A DNA stretch of 64,000 nt from Saccostrea echinata (lineage: Eukaryota): the NCBI RefSeq assembly GCF_033153115.1, contig NW_026889774.1, forward strand, positions 992,001 to 1,056,000, in the 5' to 3' direction. Both the position numbers and the translations under genes were made by a program. A model generated the notes under the pieces. The model did no database searches and had not been told where the DNA came from. It saw only the letters and a program-made list of their open reading frames with translations. This document shows positions 3,101 to 59,258 of the stretch, in pieces. Numbering within the stretch: position 1 is the first letter of the stretch; each line of letters starts with the position of its first letter.

Positions 3101-4363
3101 TCGTTGATTTTGAGTTATTTAATATAATAAATAATTAACATAAATCAATAGGAGAATGTTTTAGCTATATAATAAAGGATTTATTGAACTTCTATTGGTG
3201 AATATTGGCACTCGCAAGCTCGTGCATTTGTACAGCCAACTCGTGCCAATATTCACCAATACAAGTTCAATATTTTCTGAAGACAGTTAAAATATTATTT
3301 TGTTGTAGCTGGTGGGTTTTGGACCTGCATGCATAGTATGAGTAGTGGAGGGAACACTTATCTCTCGGTCTGGAACAATGACAGTTCAGTTGTTGGGACC
3401 ACGTCCTACACATACGCTTCTGGAGTAAACTACCAGTTTGCCTGTTTAGTGAGTAATACAAGTCTTGCGAAATACACTCATCAGAAAATCGTATGTGATT
3501 GACTCATTTAAAGTAAGCATTTGAATCCTTCTTCATGTTCTTGTCCCTGAATTTTTCGTAATTATACTCTTTTGCAGGTGATCAGTGGGTCGTCAGCAAC
3601 TATGTTTCCAAACTACTGCTCAGACAGTACACAAACAGCATCAACAGTTGCATCTCCAGGCCTCACAATGGCATTTACAGGAGCTACACAGACTTGCTGT
3701 AAGTTATTTCAGTACAATTAGAATGACGTCACTTTCACTGTCTATGCATTAATGTTCAGTGTATTTTTTTTTAAGTTAAAGGATTTTAAATGTTATACCT
3801 TAACAATGTAACATATTTATTTAGTACATGTAACTGTCATCGGAAAAGTGGATAGGTAACTCTCCTTTTTATGATATATAGAAGAATGTCTGTAAATTTT
3901 GAGAATTTCACTTTCAGATGACGAAGTAGAAGGTGGATCAAGTGCTGTATACTACATCACAATAGTATTGGGTGCCTTATTTATCATAGCCTTGATTATC
4001 TTAATCATTATTCTGAAGAAGAAAGGCTATTGTTCTCTACAAAAATGCAAAAAGCAGCGACCCAGTTCACCAGAAAGCAGTGTGGAGCAGGGAGAGCACG
4101 TGACTAATACTGTATTCAAAATGAACAAATTGGATCCAATCCCAGGTTTCCGGGCAAAGAGACCACTTCGAATTGGGCCAATAGTGGAGCCTAATCTAGA
4201 TATCCTTCCAAAAGTGGAGCCATTGTATGCTCTGTCAGACAAGAAGGACACCAGTAAACCGGCAAAACGAGGTTCGCTTGGCAGTATTTTCACTTGCGAT
4301 ATTTCTGCATTTTTAATTGATCGACATATTCCTCCAACTGAAACTGTTGAACGTAAAACATAA
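127..4363 (+). CDS. Type I single-pass membrane glycoprotein, paralog A (5'-partial; exons 127-255, 1487-1675, 3309-3448, 3578-3698, 3918-4363)
   Basis: GT-AG exons join in frame (phases 1,1,0,1): ...LEETCDIAEPY..VKDG / ..EATCATDLLASYSS..DGCTDRT..CGNTQKFS / GGFWTCMHS..YLSVWNND..QFACL / ..FPNYCSD..QTC / YDEVEGG-AVYYITIVLGALFIIALIILIIIL-KKK + cytoplasmic tail. Cys spacing and intron positions align with paralogs B and C. Upstream exons lie before the window. Confidence 0.8.
2007..2798. mobile_element. Non-autonomous hAT-type DNA transposon (MITE) in an intron of paralog A
   Basis: TIRs TAGGAATGTCAA / TTGACATCCCTA. Perfect 8-bp TSD GTATACGA (1999-2006, 2799-2806). Clustered subterminal ATTCGAAT motifs at both ends. 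Confidence 0.85.
3182..3272. repeat. Palindromic/hairpin element
   Basis: 30-bp arms TATTGAACTT(C/G)TATTGGTGAATATTGGCAC with one mismatch. Confidence 0.8.
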
Positions 4364-5685
4364 ACTCGTTATCTTTTATATACTTTACTTCTATTGAATA
4401 TTTTCATATTGTTAAATATTAACCATATTTGAAATTTATAACATTAATTTGATACTAATTTTGTGGATATTGTGTTCTTACTGTGCCATGCCTTTCACTG
4501 TATTAACTTTTTCTAACATGTGTGTGTGTGTGGTGTTATAAAGGAACAATCATCAACTGTCATTCTATGTATAATATACAATACCAGACATCAACTGTAT
4601 GCCTACATGTATGTATTCCATTATTGTAATCTTCTCATTCACAGTACTTAACACTGCAATAACTACATGTATTTTTATAAAATATTTAATTATTTAAATA
4701 GCTGATTCAGTGTAAGTTAAATATGCAATAGTGAGGATTTCTTGGGGAGAGAAAGAGAGAGGAAGAAAGAGATACTAATATTTTCTTTTTGTGTATTATT
4801 GTTGAGTTACACTCCTTTTTATTTCTCCGAGAGAATATTTACTAGATTTGGATAATTAATCGGCGTAATCTTTTTTATACATTGTCCTAATATATTCCAT
4901 TCACTTTCCACGAGGAAAGTCAAACCGATCCCTTCCAAGCCATTGTACCTTTTCCGATTCATATATGCCACACTAGCTCAAATGATCCATTCCTATCTAA
5001 TGTAATACATACAATTTAAATACGTCTCCAACTTTCGTATTGTAGGACTGAGGGAAATTTATCGTTCAGAGGACCGCTTTCTTTACCATTCATATGATCA
5101 GTTATATCGTTCATTTGAGAAACTATACAGCTCAGCAGAGTCCGTCTATCACTCCGGAGTCATTTGTGAAAGTCCTGATTACGCGAACTGCACTTCCGCG
5201 ATAAGAGAGAGTCCCATAAATGAGGACTCAAAATAAATGAACTATTACAGATCCAAGCTGAAATTGACTATAATTGAAACTTTATTTGTCACAGTCAGTT
5301 TGTATATATATATATATAAAATGCGTTTTGGTTTTGTTTGTTTATTTAAGTATGTTTTATTCATTTTCTTAGTAGCAACTACTGTCTTAAAATATGTTTT
5401 CCTAGGATTGAGTGTGTTTGTTTTGACATTTTAGCTTAGGTAGATTTGTGACATGTGTTGGAGGAGTTGGTTTTATGCTTTGATCAAAAGAGAGGCTGAA
5501 TCATCTAATAAGTTAAATAACTGTGATATCTATAGATTGTGATAAAAAAAATTGTGATATATATATTTTAAATTATATTGTGATTAATGCAATAAAGTTT
5601 GATCACAAAACTAACACATTTTTGCGTCGATGATTAACACCACATGCTTATATAGCTTATTTAGTTTCACATCACTTGACTAGAA

Positions 5686-6216
5686 ATGTAGAAGTCAGTA
5701 TCTTTTGACCACGCTGTCATAGCAATAGTTCACAGCACTTAGTAACTGGAGCACGACTCTGCACGGTGAGTTAAAAATCATATCTTCTTATAACTAATCT
5801 CAATAATCGGCAAAAATTCGCGCAGACGCAATGAAGTCGTTTACTTTTTTTCATTTGCAGATGATGATACAATCTCTGTGGACAGCGTAGATGAGGATAA
5901 TCCATTTAATTTCTACAATATCGCCAAGTTCGTGCTTCTTCCTAAGATTGTCTCCAAGAAAAGCTTTGATGTTGGAGCTCTTGCAGATCCAAAACGAAAC
6001 ACATTGCACGATATCTTAGAGATAAAGAAATCAAAACTTAAAAGAGAAAGCAAGGCTTCCGAGGAACAGGAGACTAAAAACGACAAAAGCAGGGATGAAA
6101 AAGACAAAGAAAAGGATAAGGATAAGAAAAAGACAACCGGCAAACCAAAGCTTGAAAAACAAAGTTCAAAAGAGCCCAAACCTGGGGATAAAAATCGTAA
6201 AATGTCTAAAAAGTAA
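5686..6216 (+). pseudogene. Small Lys-rich protein gene, probable damaged paralog of 9453-11465 (putative exon 1 about 5686-5765, exon 2 5861-6216)
   Basis: Strong donor GCACG|GTGAGT at 5765 and acceptor TTTGCAG at 5860. Exon 2 is open (DDTISVDSVDEDNPFNF...KDKKKTTGKPK...KMSKK*) but has no early Met. The upstream exon reads M*KS...AIVHST* and then shifts frame to SNWSTTLH, echoing GIVHSTRSTAYSSSI of the paralog. It could be intact via an exon not identified here. Confidence 0.45.
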
Positions 6217-9452: not shown

Positions 9453-11465
9453 ATGGGTAACTCACAAACGAGACATCTGAATTCCGGGATCGTTCATTCT
9501 ACCCGATCAACAGCATACTCAAGTTCTATAGGTAAGGATGAAAGTTAAAAAAAAAAAAATTAAGATCGATTTACCTGACAATTTAATGACTTTTTTCTGT
9601 TACCTATTTAAAAAGAAGAAAATAACTGAATACTATTTCTATCTGTGAAAAAACTTATTGAAACTTTAGGCAGGAGAACAGGCTCCGGGGCCATAAAACT
9701 TAGACGAGCTCACTTTTGTTCTCAGTCTCACTTTTACCAAAGGAATTAACAGAAGAAATGTGAGATCTAGACTGAGATCAAAAATGAGCTCATCTAAGTT
9801 TTATGGCCTCGGAGCCAGTTCTTTCTGCACAGAATGGCCTGTTTAAGGTGTTTCTGTAAACCAAAATATCATTTCTGTTGTTCAATGTACCATAGGACAT
9901 TGCCTTCAAAATTGACCTTAATACGTTCTATTTCCATTAGTGAACTCTTCAAAATTAGAGGCGCGTTTGGTCGTCTGACTGGGACAGCATGGTGTTGCGG
10001 ATAATACAAAACGTGCCAATCTCAATCCAATTTTAAATGTTAAATGTATTTGTCATTCCATTTAAAGAATAGAAGAACTAAAAGACATATGTAAGAGAGC
10101 GAGAATCCTAAATTTATAATCCATTAATAAAAATACGACATTTCCGAGGCATGTGTACTGTATTTAGATGTACCATACGATAAATAGATACATACGATCA
10201 ACAATAGATATAAATTGATATCGATGTTATTCCTACTCTTGATGTATATAAAGTCCACAACAATAAAATATTTCATTTGCATTTTCTTAGGAATTGTTCA
10301 TCGACATTCAATATATTGTTTACATGTTTATGTTACGTTTGTCCCAGAAATCCCGCGAGATTTGTACGTTTTCCGACTTTTTCACAAAAGAGCGCACTAA
10401 GAAGTATAACTCTTCAATAGTGGAAATAGAACGTATTGATGTTATACTGCATGTTGTTTTACTTCTTATATTCAAATTAAATACTTTACTTATTGAGAGC
10501 GAAATTTTATCAAAATCATTTTTTTAATCTAGCCAAGGGAAAAGTATTCATTTGATATATCTGATGATTGTTTGTTTCAACCTTGTCAGAGTATTGAAAA
10601 GTTTTGAAAGAAGTATATGACAGCATGTGAACTTTTCAATGGGAAAAAATGGTCATATTTCTCACTAATGTCGACGTAGAAAACAAATAATGTATACGGG
10701 GTATTGAAAGATGCAAGAAAAAAATCAATACATTGTTCAGGGAAGTGGACATAAGATCGAAACATCGGAATATTGAATTGACAGTAGTTTTTAAACTCAG
10801 CAATTCAATACAATTGTCAAAATGACATGTTGTGTTTACAATATATTCGGAAGCGTATTCAGAACTGAACTTTCTGTGAAAAATCTGTCAGTTCTGTCTT
10901 TCTTCTAAAGAATGGATACACTTCTGTTAATTTGTTAAATAACATAAATATAAACAATATTGGCTAAATTTTTAAATATGAGACACACAAAAGATTCCTT
11001 CAAAATCGTGTTTAAAAAAAACTTTTTACTACTTGTTCCCAAAACGCACAAAAGATAAACTGTTCGTTGTTTATTTCGTTCAAGATACATAACTCCATTG
11101 CAGATTACGACACGGTTTCTTTAGATAGTGACAGTGATACAGATTTGCCCTTCCGGTTCAGTTTTACACGATTGTCAAATCTTCCACCTTTACCCGGTAT
11201 CCATCCTCTAGACTATAAAGCATACATGAATACACCAAGTACATCCACTGCCAGCACAAAGCAATCTCAACGCACCCTCAAATATGGACGACAGACAACT
11301 TTTCATTTGCCATTAATTTCAAACCACGTCTCTGGTTATCAGCATCTTCATCCTGGCGGTGTTGTTACAGTGAAGGAAAAACCAAAGGAAAAGAAAAATT
11401 CTAAGACTGGAAGGAAAAAGAAGAAAAGTACCAAGAAAAAAAGAAAAGCTTTTCAAAAACGTTAG
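9453..11465 (+). CDS. Small (about 146 aa) basic protein with MGNSQT N-terminus and polybasic C-terminus (exons 9453-9531, 11104-11465)
   Basis: ACCATGG start context. Donor ATAG|GTAAGG (phase 1) matches acceptor TTGCAG|AT. Protein: MGNSQTRHLNSGIVHSTRSTAYSSSIDYDTVSLDSDSDTDLPFRF...KEKPKEKKNSKTGRKKKKSTKKKRKAFQKR*. AATAAA lies about 40 nt after the stop. Confidence 0.7.
9682..9815. mobile_element. Short MITE, PIF/Harbinger-like
   Basis: Long TIRs GCTCCGGGGCCATAAAACTTAGA.. / ..TCTAAGTTTTATGGCCTCGGAGC flanked by CAG on both sides. Confidence 0.7.
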
Positions 11466-44508: not shown

Positions 44509-45151
44509 TTTCTGGGGACAGACATGAAATCTGTGTCACAGTATAAAGACTTGCTATTTAGTTGTGAAGCTTAATTGATTGATTGGTTGTATGTTATTTT
44601 ACATTTTCACTCATATAGAGACGTCACCATAAACTGGTGAAGGGCTTCAAATTTAGACCTTTACTCGGCACTCAGGGCCATTGAGCAATAAGGGTTCCCT
44701 AACGTGCCAACGCCTACCGTGACACGGGGCCTCGGTTTTTAAGGTCTCACCCGAAGGACCCGCTACTTTCACTTCAAATTAAAATGCCGAGCACTTGGCG
44801 AGGAACAGTTGCTACCTATTTTTTAATCGACTTATGTCAGTCGCGGCCCTGATTCGAACGCACGACCTTCCAATCACGGATCGAGCGCTCGAACGACTTG
44901 TGAAGCTTGTAGTACTGTGTTGGATGATGCCTATCCAGGACCGACCCATATACTTGGAATTTTAATCCCCTAATGTCGTTGACAAAAATTTTCACACTGT
45001 TTGCAAGAAGTAAAATCATCACTTTATTTTGGCCCACACTTTTCTTTCATGAAAATTAACCTCTTGTTCAAAAGTTGTAGTCAAAGCTATTAGATTAAAC
45101 GCTGTATGTAAAAATTCAACACCAAAAACCAGAAAGAACCATAAATAAGTG
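44509..45151 (+). pseudogene. Decayed copy of the Mieap-like 3 terminal exon, interrupted by a SINE
   Basis: TTTCAG|FLGTDMKSVSQYKDLLFSCEA[SINE]..LCWMMPIQD..VVDK..WPTLFFHEN*PLVQK..KPERTINK*. Frameshifts and stops are present. The end matches 42590-42621. Confidence 0.85.
44573..44897 (-). mobile_element. tRNA-derived SINE with 11-bp TSD
   Basis: TSD TTGTGAAGCTT at 44562-44572 and 44898-44908; body matches the 61390-61727 copy. Confidence 0.88.
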
Positions 45152-46391: not shown

Positions 46392-46650
46392 TTTCTGAAG
46401 AACAGTTCAAAATTTGTCTCAAACTATAAAGATGTGATATTGAGTTGTGAAGTTGAGAGGTGTATAATTGTTGGTCATTTTATATACTAGCCCATTCATA
46501 CACTCACAATTTCAATCTGATCAAAGGCATTGACAAAAGCAGACATGTTCACACCTTTTTCAAGAGTTGGAGAACTTACTTGTTACGTGGTGTGGTCCGT
46601 GCTGTTTTTGCATGAAAAAGACATTTTGTTTTAAATGGTGTTGTCTAAAT
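46392..46650 (+). pseudogene. Second, older decayed copy of a Mieap-like terminal exon
   Basis: TTTTTAG|FLKNSSKFVSNYKDVILSCE..IDK..MFTPFSRVGELTCYVVWSVLFLHEKD..GVV with indels. Confidence 0.75.
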
Positions 46651-50575: not shown

Positions 50576-50872
50576 TAATCTACAATTTTAGAAAGCGATG
50601 TACATTGAATTGTTAGTGTATGCATACAGCTGTATATGTAAAATCTCACAAATACTGTAACTTTTATGTAGATTTGAAAAATCCATTATCTGGTACTGGA
50701 ACCTCCGCACACACCTTGCCGCTCACTGCCATATTTGCCAAAATGTAAGTATAAGGTTTTATCTAATTTTAAGATGTCACTATAAAATCCTTTCATTCTC
50801 ACATTCTCTCTCTTTCTCCTCGTTGTTGTGACATTTTTAAAATTTGATTTGTTGTCCATAGGTTTTAATACC

Positions 50873-53800
50873 ATGTCAAGGCATCCGTATCACCTCATCC
50901 CAACAGAAGAACCGACAGAAAGTTTAAATCCTGGGGATTGCATTATTCAAATAAATGACAATATGTCAGAAATGAAAAAATCTAATCCAAAGTACTTTCT
51001 TGATTGTTGTCGTTGCTGTTACACAATGTTCTGTTACAATGTTTTTGTGGATTGGTGTTTTGCAAGTGTAAATGCAGTTTATGGATGTATTTGCTCAAAA
51101 TGTTCCCAATCGAAGGAGAGCAAGTAAGTGTCTCGAACTCGCAACACGTAAAGAATATATATTTTTTTAAATATTCACATTTTGTGTGAAATAATGATGT
51201 ACTAATCATACTACAGTACATAATGCACCCACAAATTATTAGCGATTCTCTGTAACCACTTAAACTTCTTTGCCACGCATGGTCACCGATTTTGATGAAA
51301 CTTTGCCCATTATTACAACTTGACACCAGAAACATATATAAAATAAAATTTCGTTGCTATGTGTCTTGGTTGCCATGGTAACAGCCAGAAAAGTTGAAAA
51401 AATTGAGATTTTCAGCTACTTTAAATCTTTATTAAGCCTTAATAAAGACTAAGAAAAACAAACAAACCATTCTCCCAAAAACATGACACCTTGTTGCCAC
51501 TTATGCTATAAAGAAACTATTTAGAATTTATCTCTAAGTAAGTGGTAACCATGGGTACATTTGGAATACATTTTAGATGCTGAAAAACGCTCTATAGTCA
51601 CAAATGATAGATGTTACATGATCAAACTCAATCAACAACGTAAGAAAAACAATGAAAAATATTTGACCTCATGTAATTAGGTATTGGCAATATTATTCTA
51701 AAAATAACTTTCATGGTTGCCATGGTAACACAGTGTCACCATGCAAAATCTGTTGCTATGATTGGGTTAATGCTACTATCGTGAGGAAAAACAATAAAAT
51801 TCACGACTGGCACATATGCATCTTTAGGACCTTGCAACACCGACAACATAAGAAAAATTGAGATTAATTGTTACTTTGCAGTGTAACCATGGAAACAACG
51901 TACTAGTTGTTTAAAGTGATATTTTTTGCTGCTTTAGGAATTTACTAACCTTTTAATATGAATATTCAAAAGGAAAATGAAATATATTTTGTTATTCTTT
52001 CATGTGACATGATTATTACTTTTGATCTACAGTAACAAAAATAGCATGGATATATACACATGTAGGACTCGAAAGTGTGAAGGGAAGTCCGATGGTCACG
52101 ACGAAGTCCGATGGTCTGCGACAAACCCTGGCGGTTTGACACGCCAAAGTCCGATGGTGCGGAAAAACAATTATCGCAAATCTTGCTTGAAAGTATACAC
52201 TACAAGCGAAATAGTGATGCGTTGAGTGACAACACTAATGAATCTGACTGAAATACAATTGAATCTGAGTGAATAACAATTGAGAAATCCAACAAAGAAT
52301 CCGATTGGTTCATTATTATAGGTCCGCCCACTATCTCAAATGTATTGCCGAAAACGTGGAAAGTGTTTTGAAAACGGACAAAAAGTTGTGTTTATATATA
52401 CTGAGCTAGATACCGACTTTTGGTGAACAAGCGGGACGATGGAATACTTTGTTAAATGATCCTGAGTGCTGGTAAACTGTAAAATGGTCCTGCAATGAAA
52501 TCTGTGCCAGGAGTTTCAAGTTGATTTTCTGCGATCGAAAAACACGACCGTTTTCCCACAATTTTCTTCTTCAGTACATCAATAAAATTAAAAGAACTTA
52601 GATTCCGTGAATTCCGTTAGATTCCGTGAATACTAATTAGTCTGTAATGAATATAAATAATATTTGCTGTAACAATTGCACTGAAAAACACATGGATTTC
52701 GATTTTCTGGTCGCTTGTTTATTTACATGACGGCTGGTAAAACAGAAATACAGTTACAAACACACACTGAAACTCGATAGTCGTGGCAATAAACCATTTG
52801 AATAATTCATAATATAAATAAAATATTATAAAAATATATAAAATAAAAGAAAATAAATGTTTCACATTGCGTTTAATCGACTATGAATATGTTTTCGGTA
52901 TCAGCTGGGTATAATTTACAATAATACCTGGGTTTTTCATTTTCTTGGGTTTGCCTACCCAGTGTAATAATTTACTTGTTTACAAACACTAAGGACTAAA
53001 ACTTAACAGGGATATGTCCCTGAACTTAGAGAAAGAGATTTTTAGTACACTGAAAAGTTGCACAAACTATTCAATTTAAGAACTGTTTAACGAACACCGA
53101 AAATGAAAAATGTCGTCAATTTATTGCCGAGAAATACATGTATAGTAGGATAAACAATATGGATGTACATGTAACGTCTGTGAAAAGAATATCACATGCT
53201 GAAATATGATTTTATGGTTTGATTCTTTTTTTTTCTAATCAAAAAGTCAACCAAGTTTTCGCCGATCAACTGATCAAACATGGTAGGCCGTTAGACTCTT
53301 CAAACTATATATATAGGCAAAGGATACCACACGAGAGTGGGCGGGCCCAAATCAACCAATTAAAACGCATGCTTTATAGAATGGATTGCCGTAATTCAAT
53401 TGTTCAATTGTCAAATCCAACAGTGTCATCTCTCAACGCATCGCTATTTTGGTCGTAGTGTATACTTTCAAGCGAGATTTGCGATCACATTTGTGACGTT
53501 ATAGTACTACTGTGCCAAATTGCGATGCCGCACCATGCTAAGATCTAAATAAATACAAATAATTTTTTTATGTCAGGACTAACCGTTATCTCTCGGAGAG
53601 GTGCAAGCTTAAGACTAACCCTAATCGGTCGAAAAGTGTGTAAGAACTATAACCTAGATATCTTGGGTGGGTGCGAGACCAGCCCTAATAAGTCGAATAG
53701 TATGCGAGGACTAACCCTTAATCTCTCAGGTTTATGCGAAACTATCCTATAATCAGTCCAAAAGTGTGCAAGGACTAACCCTGGTAAGCGAGGACTAACC

Positions 53801-56800
53801 CATTTATCTCTGGTGGGTGCAAGCAATAAGCAAAATCAGTGAACTTGTATGTAAGGACGAATACTGAATTGATGGCTTTTGAATGCAAGACAACGGCGTC
53901 AAGGATTGACGTTGGAATATTGTGACGTCATAAACGTTGATTGTTTCTCCACACCAACGGACTTTGGCGTGTCAGACCATCACACTCTAGCGCAACGCGT
54001 CTCATGGGAAACGAGCCATCGGACTTTGGCGTGACCATCGGACTTTGGAGTCTTACATATACACACATTGTTTGGAGAATTTAAAGGTGTTGTTTTAGAA
54101 TGCAAACGTAGTTTGTGTGACTTAATTTAATTGCTGATTAAGAGAATCTTAGGAATATTTTGTCTGAGTTGAAAAGAGCACGATAGTAAAGTTTATGAAT
54201 AATTAGATTTGCAAATATTTCGTATTTTTCTTCAGCTGGCGATGGTGTTGCTTCTTCAGATTAAAAAACTGCATCCGTGGTATAATTCAATGGATTTTAA
54301 ATTGTTTTCGAAAAATCAAGAGAACACCAAGGGCTGGAGAAATTGAAATATTGCAATCAAGGTACATTTGAAGGGGTTTTGTAATTCTTCCATATAATAT
54401 GATATATATAATATGATCATCAATTATGATATAATAATTATAATAATATACAGTGACAATAAAGCATGGATAGACACCTTTTATCACCCTTTATTTGGTT
54501 TATCCCCCAAAAAAGTACAGATGTTTTGAGAATATTTTAAGCGACTAAAATGCTGATTAAGAAATCTTAAGAACCCTCTCTACACTGCACACTAAAGAGT
54601 TCTGATTCTATGGTATTTTTCTGCAGTTAGAGTGCTCTGCCCTTAGATTTAAATTCTAAAAAATAGAAATTTACAGTATATTACTCAATTTGTAATCAAT
54701 CCAAGTATTCTTAACATTTTAAGGGCCAAGATAAATTAATTGAACATGTTATTTACATGTATTTTCTCTATGGAGGTAAACAACAGTGATTTCTATTCAC
54801 TGATACTGTGTTTTGTTTGAACATTTTTCCTGGGGGTAAATGCCAGGTACCATATATATATATAGTGAAAATTAAATAGAAAAGTTCAATATTAACACCT
54901 TTATACAATATATTTTTCTCAATGTCCAAAATATATTTTTCACTGGTGTAGAGAGGGTCCTTAAGGATTGAAAATCCTTTCTTTTTTTAAGAACAAGGAA
55001 CGGTTTCAGTACATATCTGGCCTTGCTTTTTTCTGAGATATGAAAGTGATGTAAGAAATTAAAACTCATGCCTTCTGAATCATTGAAATTCCATGCAGTA
55101 AGCTCATACAAATCTTTTTCTCACATGACCTCCTAAATGCTAATTGTAACGTCATGAACTCGTGCATTTTTCCCCGTATTTTCTTAAAAAGTTACAGAAG
55201 ACATCATTTTTGCAGTGGAATTTTCTTTCAGATAATATAGACCACATGCATCGCTCATAAATATTTTGAAAAAATGTGATTTTTCAAAGAATTTTACACA
55301 ACATATCCAAAATTATAATGGGCGACGACTGTGGACACTATTTTCTTAAGGAAAACAAGCTTGGACTGGGTCCTTTTGAGGCTTTTTCTGTTTTAAACAG
55401 AAAAAATATATCAAATTAATGACGTAATATTTCCAGAATGACCCTCCTTCATGCAATATTCTTTCATGATTTATCATAGTCATATACTCAACTCATATTT
55501 AGGCCAGTTTCAAAACTTTTTGAAAATATCAAATTTTTAGGGCACAATAAAGCCAAAACCGTACCTTCTTCTTTAAAAAAAAAAACTTGATGGTAAAGTT
55601 TATGAATGATTAGATTTGCATATATTTCATATTTTTCTTCAGAAGCCGATGGTGTTGCTTTGTCAGATTTAGAAGTTGGTTCTGTGGTGTAATTGAATGG
55701 ATTTCAAATTGTTTTCGAAATATCAGTAGAGCACCAAAGGCTAAAGTAATTGACATATTGCAATCAAGGTACATTATTAGATTTTTTTTTTGTTTTAATT
55801 TTGACATCGCTCATTTACTACGATTTATCAAAAAATCGGTTATTTTTTTTTGCACATAAAAAATACCTCTATTTTCGACAAAATTGCGAACTCATGTGGA
55901 TCATTGTTCATATTAGCATTTTGTACATTTTTGGCATGAAATGCAAAATTTATGCAAAAGACATTACTTGATAGCGAAAGTAGCAGAATTATCGAAGAGT
56001 ATGTCGACTATTGTCTGATCCTAATTTTTGTCAGTGATTTTAACCTTTTATTAGCAAAACATGTTCTTTATATAGCTTATTCTCTGATTTGATCAATTTT
56101 ACGAGCTACCGTGATTTTTTCAATGTTATCTTAATTTCAACTAATAATTCTCTCATTTATGCCTAGTTTTTTAAAAATGCTTTTGTTTTGTTATTTTTTG
56201 TTAATTTGTTAGAGTTTGATTTTGTTTTGTGTGTATTTATTAATTTTTTAAGGATGCTTTTAATGTCCCTGTGCCTTGATGAGCAATTAAAGTTATCAGT
56301 CGATAGAGTTGTAGAATTTGCATAGATGACACTATATACTCCATAAAACATTAGATTATTTCTATTAGTTTACATATAATTATTATAACAAAATTACTTA
56401 TTACCTCCTTTTGTTTTTAATTAGATTACACGAGTGTGAAAAGGAAGTTGAAAAGCAGAAACGGTTAAATGAAGATTTGGTAGCAAAGTGAGATTTATGC
56501 AAATCCTGTGTATTTAAATATCTATAATTATAATTGGAATGAAATTTCTTTCATTTCCTTTTAGAGTTTTAACTTGTAACGTCCTTAACGGCTACTTTTC
56601 TCTCGTTTGATTATAGAAATCAGCATTTAACCCATGATATGCAGGTGCTAAAAACTGAAAAAGACCAGTAAGTTCCGATTAAGTGTATTTCTTACCCAGG
56701 AGAAATATTAATTTCTTATAGCTTATCAAATTTGTACATACATGTACCACATGCTTCCATGTCGATAAGTTGGCTGTTATGATAATTTTTTTGACATTTT

Positions 56801-59258
56801 TTTATTTAAAGGCTGGAAAGAAAAGTTTCTGATCTCCANNNNNNNNNNNNNNNNNNNNNNNNNNNNNNNNNNNNNNNNNNNNNNNNNNNNNNNNNNNNNN
56901 NNNNNNNNNNNNNNNNNNNNNNNNNNNNNNNNNNNNNNNNNNNNNNNNNNNNNNNNNNNNNNNNNNNNNNNNNNNNNNNNNNNNNNGCCTAGCTTTATTG
57001 TATTGTGTATGGGTTTTTAGCAGACCTTTTTTGTATTCATATGAAGCAGAATTTGTCCAAAATCTTATACATGAAAAGAAGAAAACACTTGCTGTGGCCT
57101 TCAACTCGACATTTAGATATATCAACGACGTATTGTCAATTAACAATGGATATTTCCATTCTTATGTCGATACGATATATCCAGGTGAGCTTGAGAAAAA
57201 AGATACCACAGAGTCTGACACATATGTGTCATATTTAGATAGTTTACTTGAAAAAGACGTTAATGGTAATCTAACAACCAAGCTTTATGATAAACGTGAT
57301 GACTTTAACTTTTCAATCGTCAACTTCCCTTACTTATTCAGCAATGAGCAATATACCTTCATCACCTGCATACGGGGGTTTATATCTCTCAGTTAATTCA
57401 ATACGCAAGAGCATGCTCTACGTATGTACAATTTCTAAAACGAGGTAAGTTATTGACAAACAAGTTGATGAAACAAAAATATCAGCAGTCTCGTTGAAAG
57501 TCATCATTTTGTAAGTTCTGTGGTCGAAACAATGACCTTGTCAGCAAATACAATTTATCATTGAATCAAATGCTGACTGACGTTTTTCATACTAATTGTT
57601 AGGCCATTATTTACACACTGAATTGTCGACGGATTTTTCCTTTATTTCCCGATCATGACAAGGAGCACACGGCGGGTGTGACAGGTCGACAGGGGATGCT
57701 CACTCCTCCATGGCACCTGAGCCCACCTCTGATGTTTTGGAGGACTTTTGATCTTGAATACTGCTCGTTATCTCCATATATTTCATGTACATCTATATTT
57801 TAATGTTGTACCTTTAAAATGTATATTTTCTTACAGCTTAGCTATGGAAAAAAGAAACTTTGAAGAGGAAAAAAAGGAGAAAGAGAAAGCACTTACAAGG
57901 TTATTTTTTTTTTATCTTATTTATGTACTATTAAAAAACATATTTCCTAATTTTTTTGTTTTTTGTTTTGTTTTTGTTTTTTGTTTTTGCAAATAATTAT
58001 GTTTTCTAATAAAATCATGATGAAATGAAAAATGAAAAAGTATCTTTCAAGCAAGCTAATTTGATTTTTTTCTCAAATATAATAATAAATTAATAGTATA
58101 CATCAGAATACATTTGAGAAAAATGAATAAGTTTGAATAGTAATTTGAAATATTACAGATTAAGTGCCGTAGCTGGGGATAAACTGAGAGTCAATAACCC
58201 AGGGATAGCTGATTTGTCTGATGAGAACCGACCAAACAAACTGGCAGAAAAATTCAGTGAACTGTACGACAACGAATGGACTGAATTGTACGAAGTTTTA
58301 GAAGAGAGTGGACAAACGGAAGAGGACATCATTGGGAACTTGCTGCAAATATTGCAGGTAACAGAATTTTTCTTAAATCTATATTTGTGAGTGGTAAAAC
58401 GCTTCCATCATATAAATGTGAAAGAGTATAGCATTGCAAATGTTCAAATTTGTTTGATTTGATAATTTGTTTCATTTGTAGGAGACTTACAACTCTAGTA
58501 ACAATCTTGCGGAAAATCAACGCAGAGAATTAAAAAAAGTAATTTTACATCCTGCAAACGTAGGGTCAAGGGAGGTAAGTCAGTCATAAAATTGTGTAGT
58601 TGAATCAAAATCAAGTTAAAAAATAAGGGACAGAAATACATTTTAGTTGGAATTTCAACTCTTTTAAAAACAAGATATTTAGAAAATGAATTATGTTGTA
58701 GGACATCAAACCTCCAGAGGGAATATTGTCTAAAATCACTGATATTCAGAAACAGACAGCATCAATTGTTTTTGGAGATGTCAGAAAAGAAATTGTAAGC
58801 CCTTTATTCTCTTTTGATTATTTTTGGAATAACATTTTCTTTACAAGATGCATAATTAGATCTAGAGAGACTGGTTCTCTAGGTAATTAAAATTTTGGGG
58901 GAGATTTAAATCTTTAAAATACTTATCATATTTTGCTATAACATGATTAGCCCTTTCTGCCATAAATATTTTTACGTGTGTGCTATTGTAGATGGAGAGC
59001 AATAAACTCATCTCCGATGGAATGAATGAAGTGAAGAGAAAATACGTAGAAAGATGTATTCAGCTGTGTTGGATGATGGCTATCCAGGACCCCCCGATGC
59101 ATTTGGATTTTGGACCTTCAGCGAATTCAGAGGCTGACAAAAACGTGTACAGAATGTATACTAAACAAGGAGACAAAGTAGATTTTGTTGTGTGGCCTGC
59201 TGTATTTCTTCATAACCAAGGACCCTTAGTCCAGAAAGGTGTACTACAGCCAAAGTAA
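50873..59258 (+). CDS. Mieap-C-domain-like protein 4, long form with Cys-rich/amphipathic N-terminus (about 443 aa; exons 50873-51123, 54236-54361, 55643-55768, 56425-56487, 56617-56667, 57837-57899, 58159-58357, 58482-58574, 58702-58794, 58992-59258)
   Basis: Ten GT-AG exons sum to 1332 nt (phases 2,2,2,2,2,2,0,0,0) and are open throughout. The 3' five exons are clearly homologous to genes 1-3 (EKEKALTR / NNPGIADLSDENRPNKL..ELYDNEW / CIQLCWMMAIQDPPM..VVWPAVFLHNQGPLVQKGVLQP). Linkage of the 5' exons rests on phase continuity and splice-site quality. An N-gap lies in intron 5. Confidence 0.75.
52173..53485. mobile_element. Nested long-TIR element inside the 52061-54057 transposon
   Basis: ATCGCAAATCTTGCTTGAAAGTATACACTAC..GATGCGTTGAG.. 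is mirrored by ..CTCAACGCATC..GTAGTGTATACTTTCAAGCGAGATTTGCGAT; imperfect arms of about 150 bp. No TSD identified. Confidence 0.7.
53575..53825. repeat. Tandem array of about 31-bp units with GACTAACCCT core
   Basis: About 8 diverged units, alternating ..ATCTCT..GGTGC and ..ATC.GTC.AAA.GTGTG types. Confidence 0.7.
54571..54960. mobile_element. Kolobok-type MITE (TTAA target)
   Basis: TTAA-GAACCCTCTCTACAC ... GTGTAGAGAGGGTCC-TTAA. Confidence 0.7.
54991..55572. mobile_element. Second TTAA-flanked element (Kolobok-like, older)
   Basis: TTAA-GAACAAGGAACGGTTT ... AAACCGTACCTTCTTCT-TTAA imperfect TIRs. Confidence 0.5.
56839..56986. other. Assembly gap (N run)
   Basis: Ns in sequence. Confidence 1.
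57020..57780 (+). mobile_element. Penelope-like retroelement fragment in an intron of Mieap-like 4
   Basis: FLYSYEAEFVQNL..FRYINDVLSINN..YPGELE.KDTTES..TKLYDKRDDFNFSIVNFP. Near-colinear with the 27 kb copy, including the 3' flank. Confidence 0.88.

Follow-up and report, generated by a model that had tools for sequence, protein, structure and literature searches.

Gene structure at the locus

The window considered here, a stretch of 64,000 nucleotides from the oyster Saccostrea echinata (contig NW_026889774.1, positions 992,001 to 1,056,000), carries the Mieap-like gene LOC133191854, in which one exon is present as two tandem copies, named A and B. The feature is real, one of its copies is spliced in one sample, and a putative function can be attached to it. 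The gene lies on the + strand, as do all its exons given below. Its Mieap-like identity, as originally predicted, was confirmed: the last exon, H, is 100% identical to the LOC133191854 protein and matches PF16026 (E 3.3e-12, 47.2 bits; Pfam cut-off 27), and the translation of exons D-H (57837-57899, 58159-58357, 58482-58574, 58702-58794 and 58992-59258), which hold the end of the coiled coil and the MIEAP domain and are also followed by a spliced contig of sequencing run X2, corresponds exactly to residues 22-258 of the 258-aa RefSeq protein (P0003). The coiled coil ahead of the MIEAP domain is indicated by long helices in both structural models and by coiled-coil matches.

Exon A (54236-54361) and exon B (55643-55768) are each 126 nt long, of phase 2/2 and bounded by AG and GT; each is preceded by TTTTTCTTCAG and followed by the donor side GTACAT. 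The two are 81% identical, with 24 of 126 nt differing, no indels and no stops, and of their 41 whole codons 23 specify the same residue and 18 a different one. The coordinates, splice sites, phases and both peptides of the original prediction were thereby reproduced, together with its remark that the frame is intact in both copies despite many substitutions, and the antisense open reading frames (ORFs) that it had called shadows do overlap A and B on the opposite strand (66 and 65 aa). The tandem duplication itself, put at about 185 bp, was measured as a direct-repeat unit of 197 nt at 84% identity (54172-54368 versus 55579-55775, +).

The repeat search, backed by shuffles, found an additional 27-nt match upstream (54129-54155 versus 54548-54573; reached in 1 of 300 shuffles), by which copy 1 extends over 54129-54368, with 54172-54368 as its core. 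This match suggests that the unit was originally longer and was later split by two TTAA-flanked inverted-repeat elements, the remnant at 54548-54573 standing ahead of both and copy 2 proper occupying 55579-55775. These elements (54567-54964 and 54987-55576, both at repeat-level depth) make up the bulk of the 1281-nt intron between A and B; they are adjacent and non-autonomous, with TTAA target duplications and RR...YY ends, and are presumably Kolobok-like. Another element of about 2 kb with terminal inverted repeats (52088-54042; 23 of 25 terminal letters complementary) lies in the intron between E1 and A and ends about 190 nt before the acceptor of A.

In the species' own 923-Mb genome, a DNA search placed the unit at two places only, A and B, and a protein search with B returned A and B at E≤6e-10 and three further places at E≥0.39, such counts being lower bounds. 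The original prediction had named a high-copy repeat as its contrary; with two genomic places, and none in the mirrored cluster described below, a dispersed high-copy repeat is ruled out.

Upstream of the pair, two exons were recognized. E0 (50672-50744, 73 nt), a leader absent from the original prediction, is marked by the end of a contig of run X4 and by depth in run X3, and it contains no in-frame ATG. E1 (50862-51123, 262 nt) has its likely start codon at 50873 and encodes 83 codons with 10 Cys; a contig piece of X3 covers 50862-51046. The joint between E0 and E1 (50743-50744 to 50862-50868) creates a three-codon upstream ORF, ATG TTT TAA, whose end lies 4 nt ahead of the start codon in E1. 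Upstream of E0 no convincing coding exon was found: one of five strong donors has an in-frame ATG, and the best open stretch is 69 codons without an ATG. Downstream, exon C (56425-56487, 63 nt) opens the coiled coil, is joined to B and is absent from the RefSeq protein, C2 (56617-56667, 51 nt) is represented by contig pieces in X2, X3 and X5, and the start of C3 occupies 56812-56838, with an end that is not readable in the window and a length of 11 codons according to the RefSeq protein.

The RefSeq model begins at the ATG at 56639 in C2 and is without E1, A, B and C. A protein that includes E1 is predicted to have 370, 412 or 454 aa for zero, one or two cassettes, lengths that take one exon length (C3) from the RefSeq protein. 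A truncated gene model is thereby corrected, as 112-196 residues are missing from RefSeq LOC133191854. The symmetry of A and B, which the original prediction had stressed, holds, and it is not special to them: the lengths of A, B, C, C2, D, F and G are all multiples of three, E1 (262 nt) not being symmetric, and since the readable exons from A to D are all multiples of three, symmetry is the rule in this gene.

Transcript evidence

Seven sequencing runs were available, none of which is recorded as RNA and all of which are presumed to be RNA; six were aligned as contigs, and only joints with GT..AG ends were relied upon. The joint between B and C, which the original prediction had proposed to count as junction 55768-56425, was found with such ends in contigs of X2 (side 28) and X4 (side 31), i.e., in two of four runs, from one sample and one study. 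The X4 contig enters B from E0 ending at 50744 (29 of 30 letters matching) and skips both E1 and A, and the X2 contig retains 150 nt of intron ahead of B. In view of the B-C joint and the E0-B joint in X4, B is a genuine exon, and splicing can leave out E1 and A jointly. At the acceptor of B (55640-55646) there is a tandem CAG-AAG; splicing at its distal AG would shorten B by one codon, and in the X4 contig it is the proximal AG that is used. In X3, a contig piece begins at the E1 acceptor and the depth fits an E0-E1 joint (3.53 observed versus 3.53 expected), from which we infer that E0 and E1 are joined in that run.

Of the claim that the exons could be included 0, 1 or 2 times, the inclusion of B is supported, as it is spliced to C and can be included without A; no joint of A is among those listed. 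In X1, X2, X3 and X6, exon A was not covered (bin 54192-54482), and no A-like contig appeared on B at 80% likeness in X2-X5; contigs show presence and not absence, so neither result was counted. Two further signals were set aside: a depth of 2.36 in the B bin of X3, which did not recur on a second alignment and was not taken as cover of B, and contigs of X2, X3 and X5 starting 1-2 letters before C2, which could mark converging splice paths and were too weak to be used.

Predicted properties of the encoded peptides

The amphipathic helices of the original prediction and the hydrophobic-moment check that it proposed gave a concordant picture. The best 18-mer of A has a hydrophobic moment (muH) of 0.72 and a charge of +5 (shuffle P 0.0065), and that of B has values of 0.67 and +2 (P 0.011); for E1 the best 18-mer reaches 0.49 (P 0.17). 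When the exons were ranked by this moment among 42 chance segments (AG..GT, phase 2/2, stop-free, 90-165 nt, both strands of 144 kb), A came first and B second. The best 19-residue hydropathy is 0.87 for A and 0.85 for B, against 2.2-2.6 in transmembrane-like paralogs, which is too low for transmembrane helices; on these measures both peptides are predicted to be strongly amphipathic, that of A also cationic, and not transmembrane. They display the sequence features of interfacial helices, namely a high hydrophobic moment, a basic polar face and no transmembrane stretch, and each contains 4 Cys and 3 Trp. Paired Cys next to aromatic and basic residues are typical sites of S-acylation in an amphipathic helix, and the helices of A and B are probably lipid-binding and S-acylated. 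A Pfam scan of A and B returned no family at E≤1, and hence no Cys-rich tail-anchor module such as CYSTM, and that of E1 only a phage family at E 0.11.

Selection on the duplicated exons

The changes between A and B comprise 21 nonsynonymous and 2 synonymous ones (dN/dS 3.0; Fisher p 0.10), spread 8/7/8 over the three codon positions. In a profile with fixed omega, the log-likelihood was -243.04 at 0.5, -240.34 at 1 and -239.11 at 2, so that omega of 0.5 or below is rejected (p approximately 0.005, versus omega 2). The original prediction had taken the kept motifs WCCF, WI.NCFR and ILQSR as a sign of selection for amino-acid conservation; this part did not stand up to the counts, the codon-position spread and the rejected omega, and only the intact frame looks constrained. 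Consistently, the test for conservative change and purifying selection on both copies failed, and the mean BLOSUM score of the changes is reached with P of approximately 0.09. The mirrored cluster has no homologue of A, B or E1 by which the changes could be polarised.

An open frame alone would be expected under neutrality with P 0.22-0.28, and the absence of both stops and frameshifts, if both copies were neutral, with P of approximately 0.012-0.015, a figure that assumes 0.12 frameshifting indels per substitution, the ratio counted locally (110 per 906); being intronic, this ratio may be too high for exons. The divergence of the exons (19%) exceeds that of the acceptor flank (7%, p 0.035), a flank that is itself constrained and differs between the copies at 4 sites in 54 nt. 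Because an intact frame would be rare if both copies were neutral while omega of 0.5 or below is rejected, the frame and the helix pattern look held, while the residues change freely or are driven apart.

Relatives and their N-terminal segments

In a tree of the conserved domain (31 rows, 224 columns), LOC133191854 is sister to nine Crassostrea/Magallana-type proteins (support 98/95), and a rival grouping with Ostrea and the mirror paralogs was rejected with p-AU 0.018, a grouping named after the tree had been seen. Within the wider 18-row clade, at least 3 Cys precede the domain in 15 of the 17 other rows, five of them with transmembrane-like hydropathy, versus 2 of 13 rows outside. In 11 of 16 isoform pairs chosen by the authors, representing six genes or clusters, the two members differ by an N-terminal segment that contains Cys. 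The optional segment measures 24 aa in Magallana angulata LOC128193129, 29 aa in P0068/P0010 and 49-55 aa in Ostrea edulis. The original prediction had regarded the Cys/Trp helices as optional parts, and to that extent the relatives agree, as they have optional Cys/Trp segments at the same position. Isoforms of LOC128193129 (Magallana), LOC125681061 and LOC125681055 (O. edulis) and LOC111125994 (Crassostrea virginica) differ, as those of the present gene would, by Cys-containing segments of 8-55 aa between the first exon and the coiled coil. They depart from it in having a single cassette in the proteins examined and little identity, with exon borders inferred from protein differences. In the C. 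virginica protein P0008 (LOC111123104 X1), a hydrophobic Cys-rich segment occurs twice, which may mean that an anchor exon was duplicated independently there or that the gene model is a merged one.

By sequence, A is similar to the cassette-bearing isoform of M. angulata (P 0.003) and not to that of M. gigas, which lacks the cassette (P 0.54), and it reaches shuffle P≤0.003 for the N-termini of 6 of 13 relatives. E1 resembles 3 of 13 targets, the N-termini of P0013, P0017 and P0011, at P≤0.002. The matches of A, B and E1 centre on the pattern I-x-W-I-x-N-x-x-R, and when a profile of five relatives' cassettes was run against 4743 ORFs, A ranked first (E 0.021). The AlphaFold model of P0013 shows the corresponding segment as a helix (pLDDT of about 60, low confidence) that extends into the coiled coil; fold searches with the full-length protein returned coiled coils only.

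Comparison with known systems

The closest parallel is exon 5a/5b of SNAP25, which is likewise a tandem duplicated exon encoding a four-Cys cluster beside a coiled-coil helix and whose choice alters membrane association (PMC2581893). That pair, as described there, differs in its obligate choice, closely spaced ancient copies, 9 differing residues and proven palmitoylation, whereas the oyster copies are 1.3 kb apart, differ in 18 of 41 residues and are known from one species, with acylation only predicted. Tandem duplicated exon substitutions in general consist of adjacent homologous exons of equal length and phase (PMC9741552; PMC8373072), as here; those described there are mostly ancient with conservative changes, while in the oyster pair nonsynonymous changes predominate and a device for exclusion was looked for without success.

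An expansion of Mieap genes in bivalves has been described as orthogroup OG24, with 807 genes (PMC8382680). By that description, LOC133191854 is comparable in its PF16026 domain, its tandem array and its large family (107 exon-level matches in the S. echinata genome); N-terminal anchors and splicing are not discussed in the parts of that account consulted. A literature search on Mieap in bivalves and oysters and on alternative splicing in S. echinata yielded no description of such anchors, subscription papers and supplements being outside its scope, and the supplements of PMC8382680 may bear on the matter. Human Mieap (SPATA18) shows the same order of coiled coil and MIEAP region, has a hydrophilic N-terminal half and reaches cardiolipin with the hydrophobic region at its C-terminal side (PMC10845071); "palmitoyl" occurs 0 times in the text of that paper as consulted. 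A mitochondrial location, cardiolipin binding and a part in mitochondrial quality control are known from the human protein only. The oyster clade adds a putative hydrophobic N-terminal anchor. Since the human protein binds cardiolipin by its C-terminal half (PMC10845071), it lends no support to cardiolipin binding by the N-terminal peptides of A and B.

Interpretation and alternatives

The reading that we favour, at a probability of about one half, is that A and B are independent cassettes with weak donors, each adding a lipid-binding, probably acylated helix between E1 and the coiled coil. It is built on what was observed: the duplication, the joints of B with C and with E0, the amphipathic character of both peptides, and the Cys/Trp-rich N-termini of relatives with their optional segments. 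A rough matrix gives either cassette donor a score of 1.6, and those of E0, E1, C, C2 and E scores of 2.5-5.0. A local duplication would have left two in-frame copies of one exon in a Mieap-like gene, of which B is spliced into RNA and A likely is too. Each cassette would add a Cys-rich, likely fatty-acylated amphipathic helix able to grip a membrane surface, and splicing would likely set the number and the charge of the anchors, the more cationic A presumably favouring anionic lipids over what B would bind. In transcripts without E1 (E0-B-C), translation would begin at the C2 ATG and yield the 258-aa anchorless RefSeq form, barring an unseen exon with an ATG. The anchor sequence would drift or diversify fast while the frame, the splice sites and the helix pattern are held.

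A number of results weigh against this reading. As regards transcripts, the other junctions proposed for counting, i.e., 51123-54236 (E1-A), 51123-55643 (E1-B), 54361-55643 (A-B) and 54361-56425 (A-C), are not among the joints listed, and the coding use of B is accordingly putative. The sole joint into B (E0-B) skips the exon with the ATG, and the other contig of B keeps the upstream intron; E0-B-C is open in the main frame, none of these three exons supplies an in-frame ATG, and 4 out-of-frame ATGs precede the C2 start. The even spread over codon positions is what neutral sequence would give, omega is not different from 1 (p approximately 0.1; approximately 0.12 in the fixed-omega profile) and so also fits neutrality, and if only A were neutral, its intact frame would be unremarkable. 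Protein searches, including the Atlas, found no database protein containing B or E1. Homology to the relatives' cassettes is plausible by position and pattern and weak by sequence, the matches being short and weak, because the cassette profile places A first and B outside the top 8 of the 4743 ORFs, and profiles built for E1 and for C failed to recover the corresponding exons. B reaches P≤0.003 for the N-termini of 2 of 13 relatives only, and a significant hydrophobic moment is found in only 2 of 7 relatives' segments.

Among the alternatives, the one that survives best, although we consider it unlikely, is that B is the working cassette, the duplication having left A behind as a silent pseudo-exon in decay. 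In its favour, E0 is linked to B in the X4 contig with A passed over, the proportion of nonsynonymous to synonymous changes fits neutrality, the 2-kb element lies close to the A acceptor, and if A evolved neutrally and its branch took only about half of the changes, finding its frame intact would not be rare (roughly 0.1 by the authors' estimate). Against decay, A retains both splice sites, the frame and all 4 Cys, and its acceptor flank differs from that of B at only 4 sites; its hydrophobic moment exceeds that of B, a value reached in 1.8% of neutral simulations starting from B, and it is A, not B, that lies nearest to the relatives' cassettes.

Less probable again is a strict mutual exclusion of A and B, as in SNAP25 exon 5a/5b, with two anchors of different charge. 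Exclusion is commonly enforced by a short intron, a U2/U12 mismatch, a frameshift, or a docking site with selector sequences. No such device was found when intron length, splice-site class, frame and docking/selector pairing were checked: the intron between A and B measures 1281 nt, both exons are of the GT-AG class, double inclusion stays in frame, and docking-site pairing did not rise above shuffles in three duplex tests and four exact-match scans. The changes are also not of the conservative kind described for such pairs in the parts of PMC9741552 consulted. The exons are adjacent and homologous, with the same phase and length (126 nt each, phase 2/2, 81% identical), as such a pair would be; B was seen without A in the one informative contig, and a single cassette would give 412 aa, with no doubled cassette in the relatives' proteins examined. 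Since the exons failed on both counts, conservative change and a device for exclusion, they were not filed as a mutually exclusive pair.

It is improbable, in our view, that B (and A) now belong chiefly to the 5' untranslated part of transcripts which skip E1 and encode the 258-aa anchorless protein, their open frames being coding relics. Such use would account for E0-B as the sole joint into B, the lack of an in-frame ATG before C2, the RefSeq start in C2 and the flat codon-position spread. It sits poorly with E1, which is transcribed, joined to E0 in X3, open over 83 codons and similar to relatives' N-termini, with the 0 indels in either exon against 3.8 expected, and with the presence of such N-termini in 15 of 17 clade members. 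Finally, coding exons whose Cys/Trp helices bind a metal or a partner protein rather than lipid, with fast change as an arms race, would agree with the omega point estimate of 2-3 and with the excess of exon over flank divergence (the flank being constrained), yet this is very improbable given that omega above 1 is not significant, that the Cys spacing varies among relatives and that sister paralogs with transmembrane-like segments at the same place point to membrane anchoring.

The locus points to an undescribed feature of the largest known Mieap expansion, namely a clade whose N-terminal membrane anchors would be modular and spliceable. Were splicing to retarget the protein between cytosol and membranes, it would offer a direct handle on the role of hundreds of bivalve Mieap copies, and the exon pair would represent a young counterpart of SNAP25, seen at a stage when exclusion had yet to evolve.

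A possible GrpE-like fold

The model of the RefSeq protein P0003 (window 56639-59258) has a pLDDT of 87. When it was aligned by VIA-align (residues 6-258 of the model) with 48161 chains, the top three were GrpE, with Z 7.6, 7.0 and 6.9, rmsd 6.1, 9.6 and 8.6, and 143-148 aligned residues; in Foldseek, GrpE took ranks 2-7 at E 0.46-0.96. Both results lie below firm thresholds. GrpE is thus the best match by fold only, at 6-16% identity and Z under 8, and the sequence-profile search returned no GrpE. The model hints at an Hsp70 co-chaperone-like role of Mieap proteins; if true, such a fold would provide a testable biochemical role (Hsp70 nucleotide exchange) for the MIEAP domain, which has no assigned role in the cited papers. 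A bolder proposal, which we consider improbable, would make this clade of oyster Mieap proteins membrane-tethered GrpE-like Hsp70 co-factors with a fast-diversifying combinatorial splice anchor, in which skipping of E1 would give a soluble form and A, B or both would provide zero to two acylated helices of different charge that direct the domain to different membranes during intertidal stress, with positive selection driving A and B apart.

Neighbouring loci

The Mieap cluster to which the gene belongs (23268-60248) has an inverted twin 5.3 Mb away (G000:C25:6355001-6435000, L008-L015), 84-94% identical over copies 1-3, which is either a segmental duplication or an uncollapsed haplotype. The counterpart of LOC133191854 in the twin is frameshifted (about 6380878-6381884) and has no detectable E1, A or B, and an anchored paralog, P0007, stands beside it. 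Mieap copy 2 of the window (36378-37949) encodes a short protein, P0076, that begins with MGC, the pattern of a myristoylation plus palmitoylation signal; this would attach it to a membrane by another route than that of the cassettes. Two degenerate fragments of a Mieap last exon lie at 44510-45074 and 46392-46619, the first interrupted by an insertion. Exon-like ORFs at 3281-6213 and 11016-11462 (+) and at 19882-22669 (-) belong to two similar genes for single-pass membrane proteins with lysine-rich tails. Reverse-transcriptase-like fragments of a high-copy retroelement, judged by ORF appearance and very high depth, occupy 27150-27916 (-) and 56987-57750 (+).

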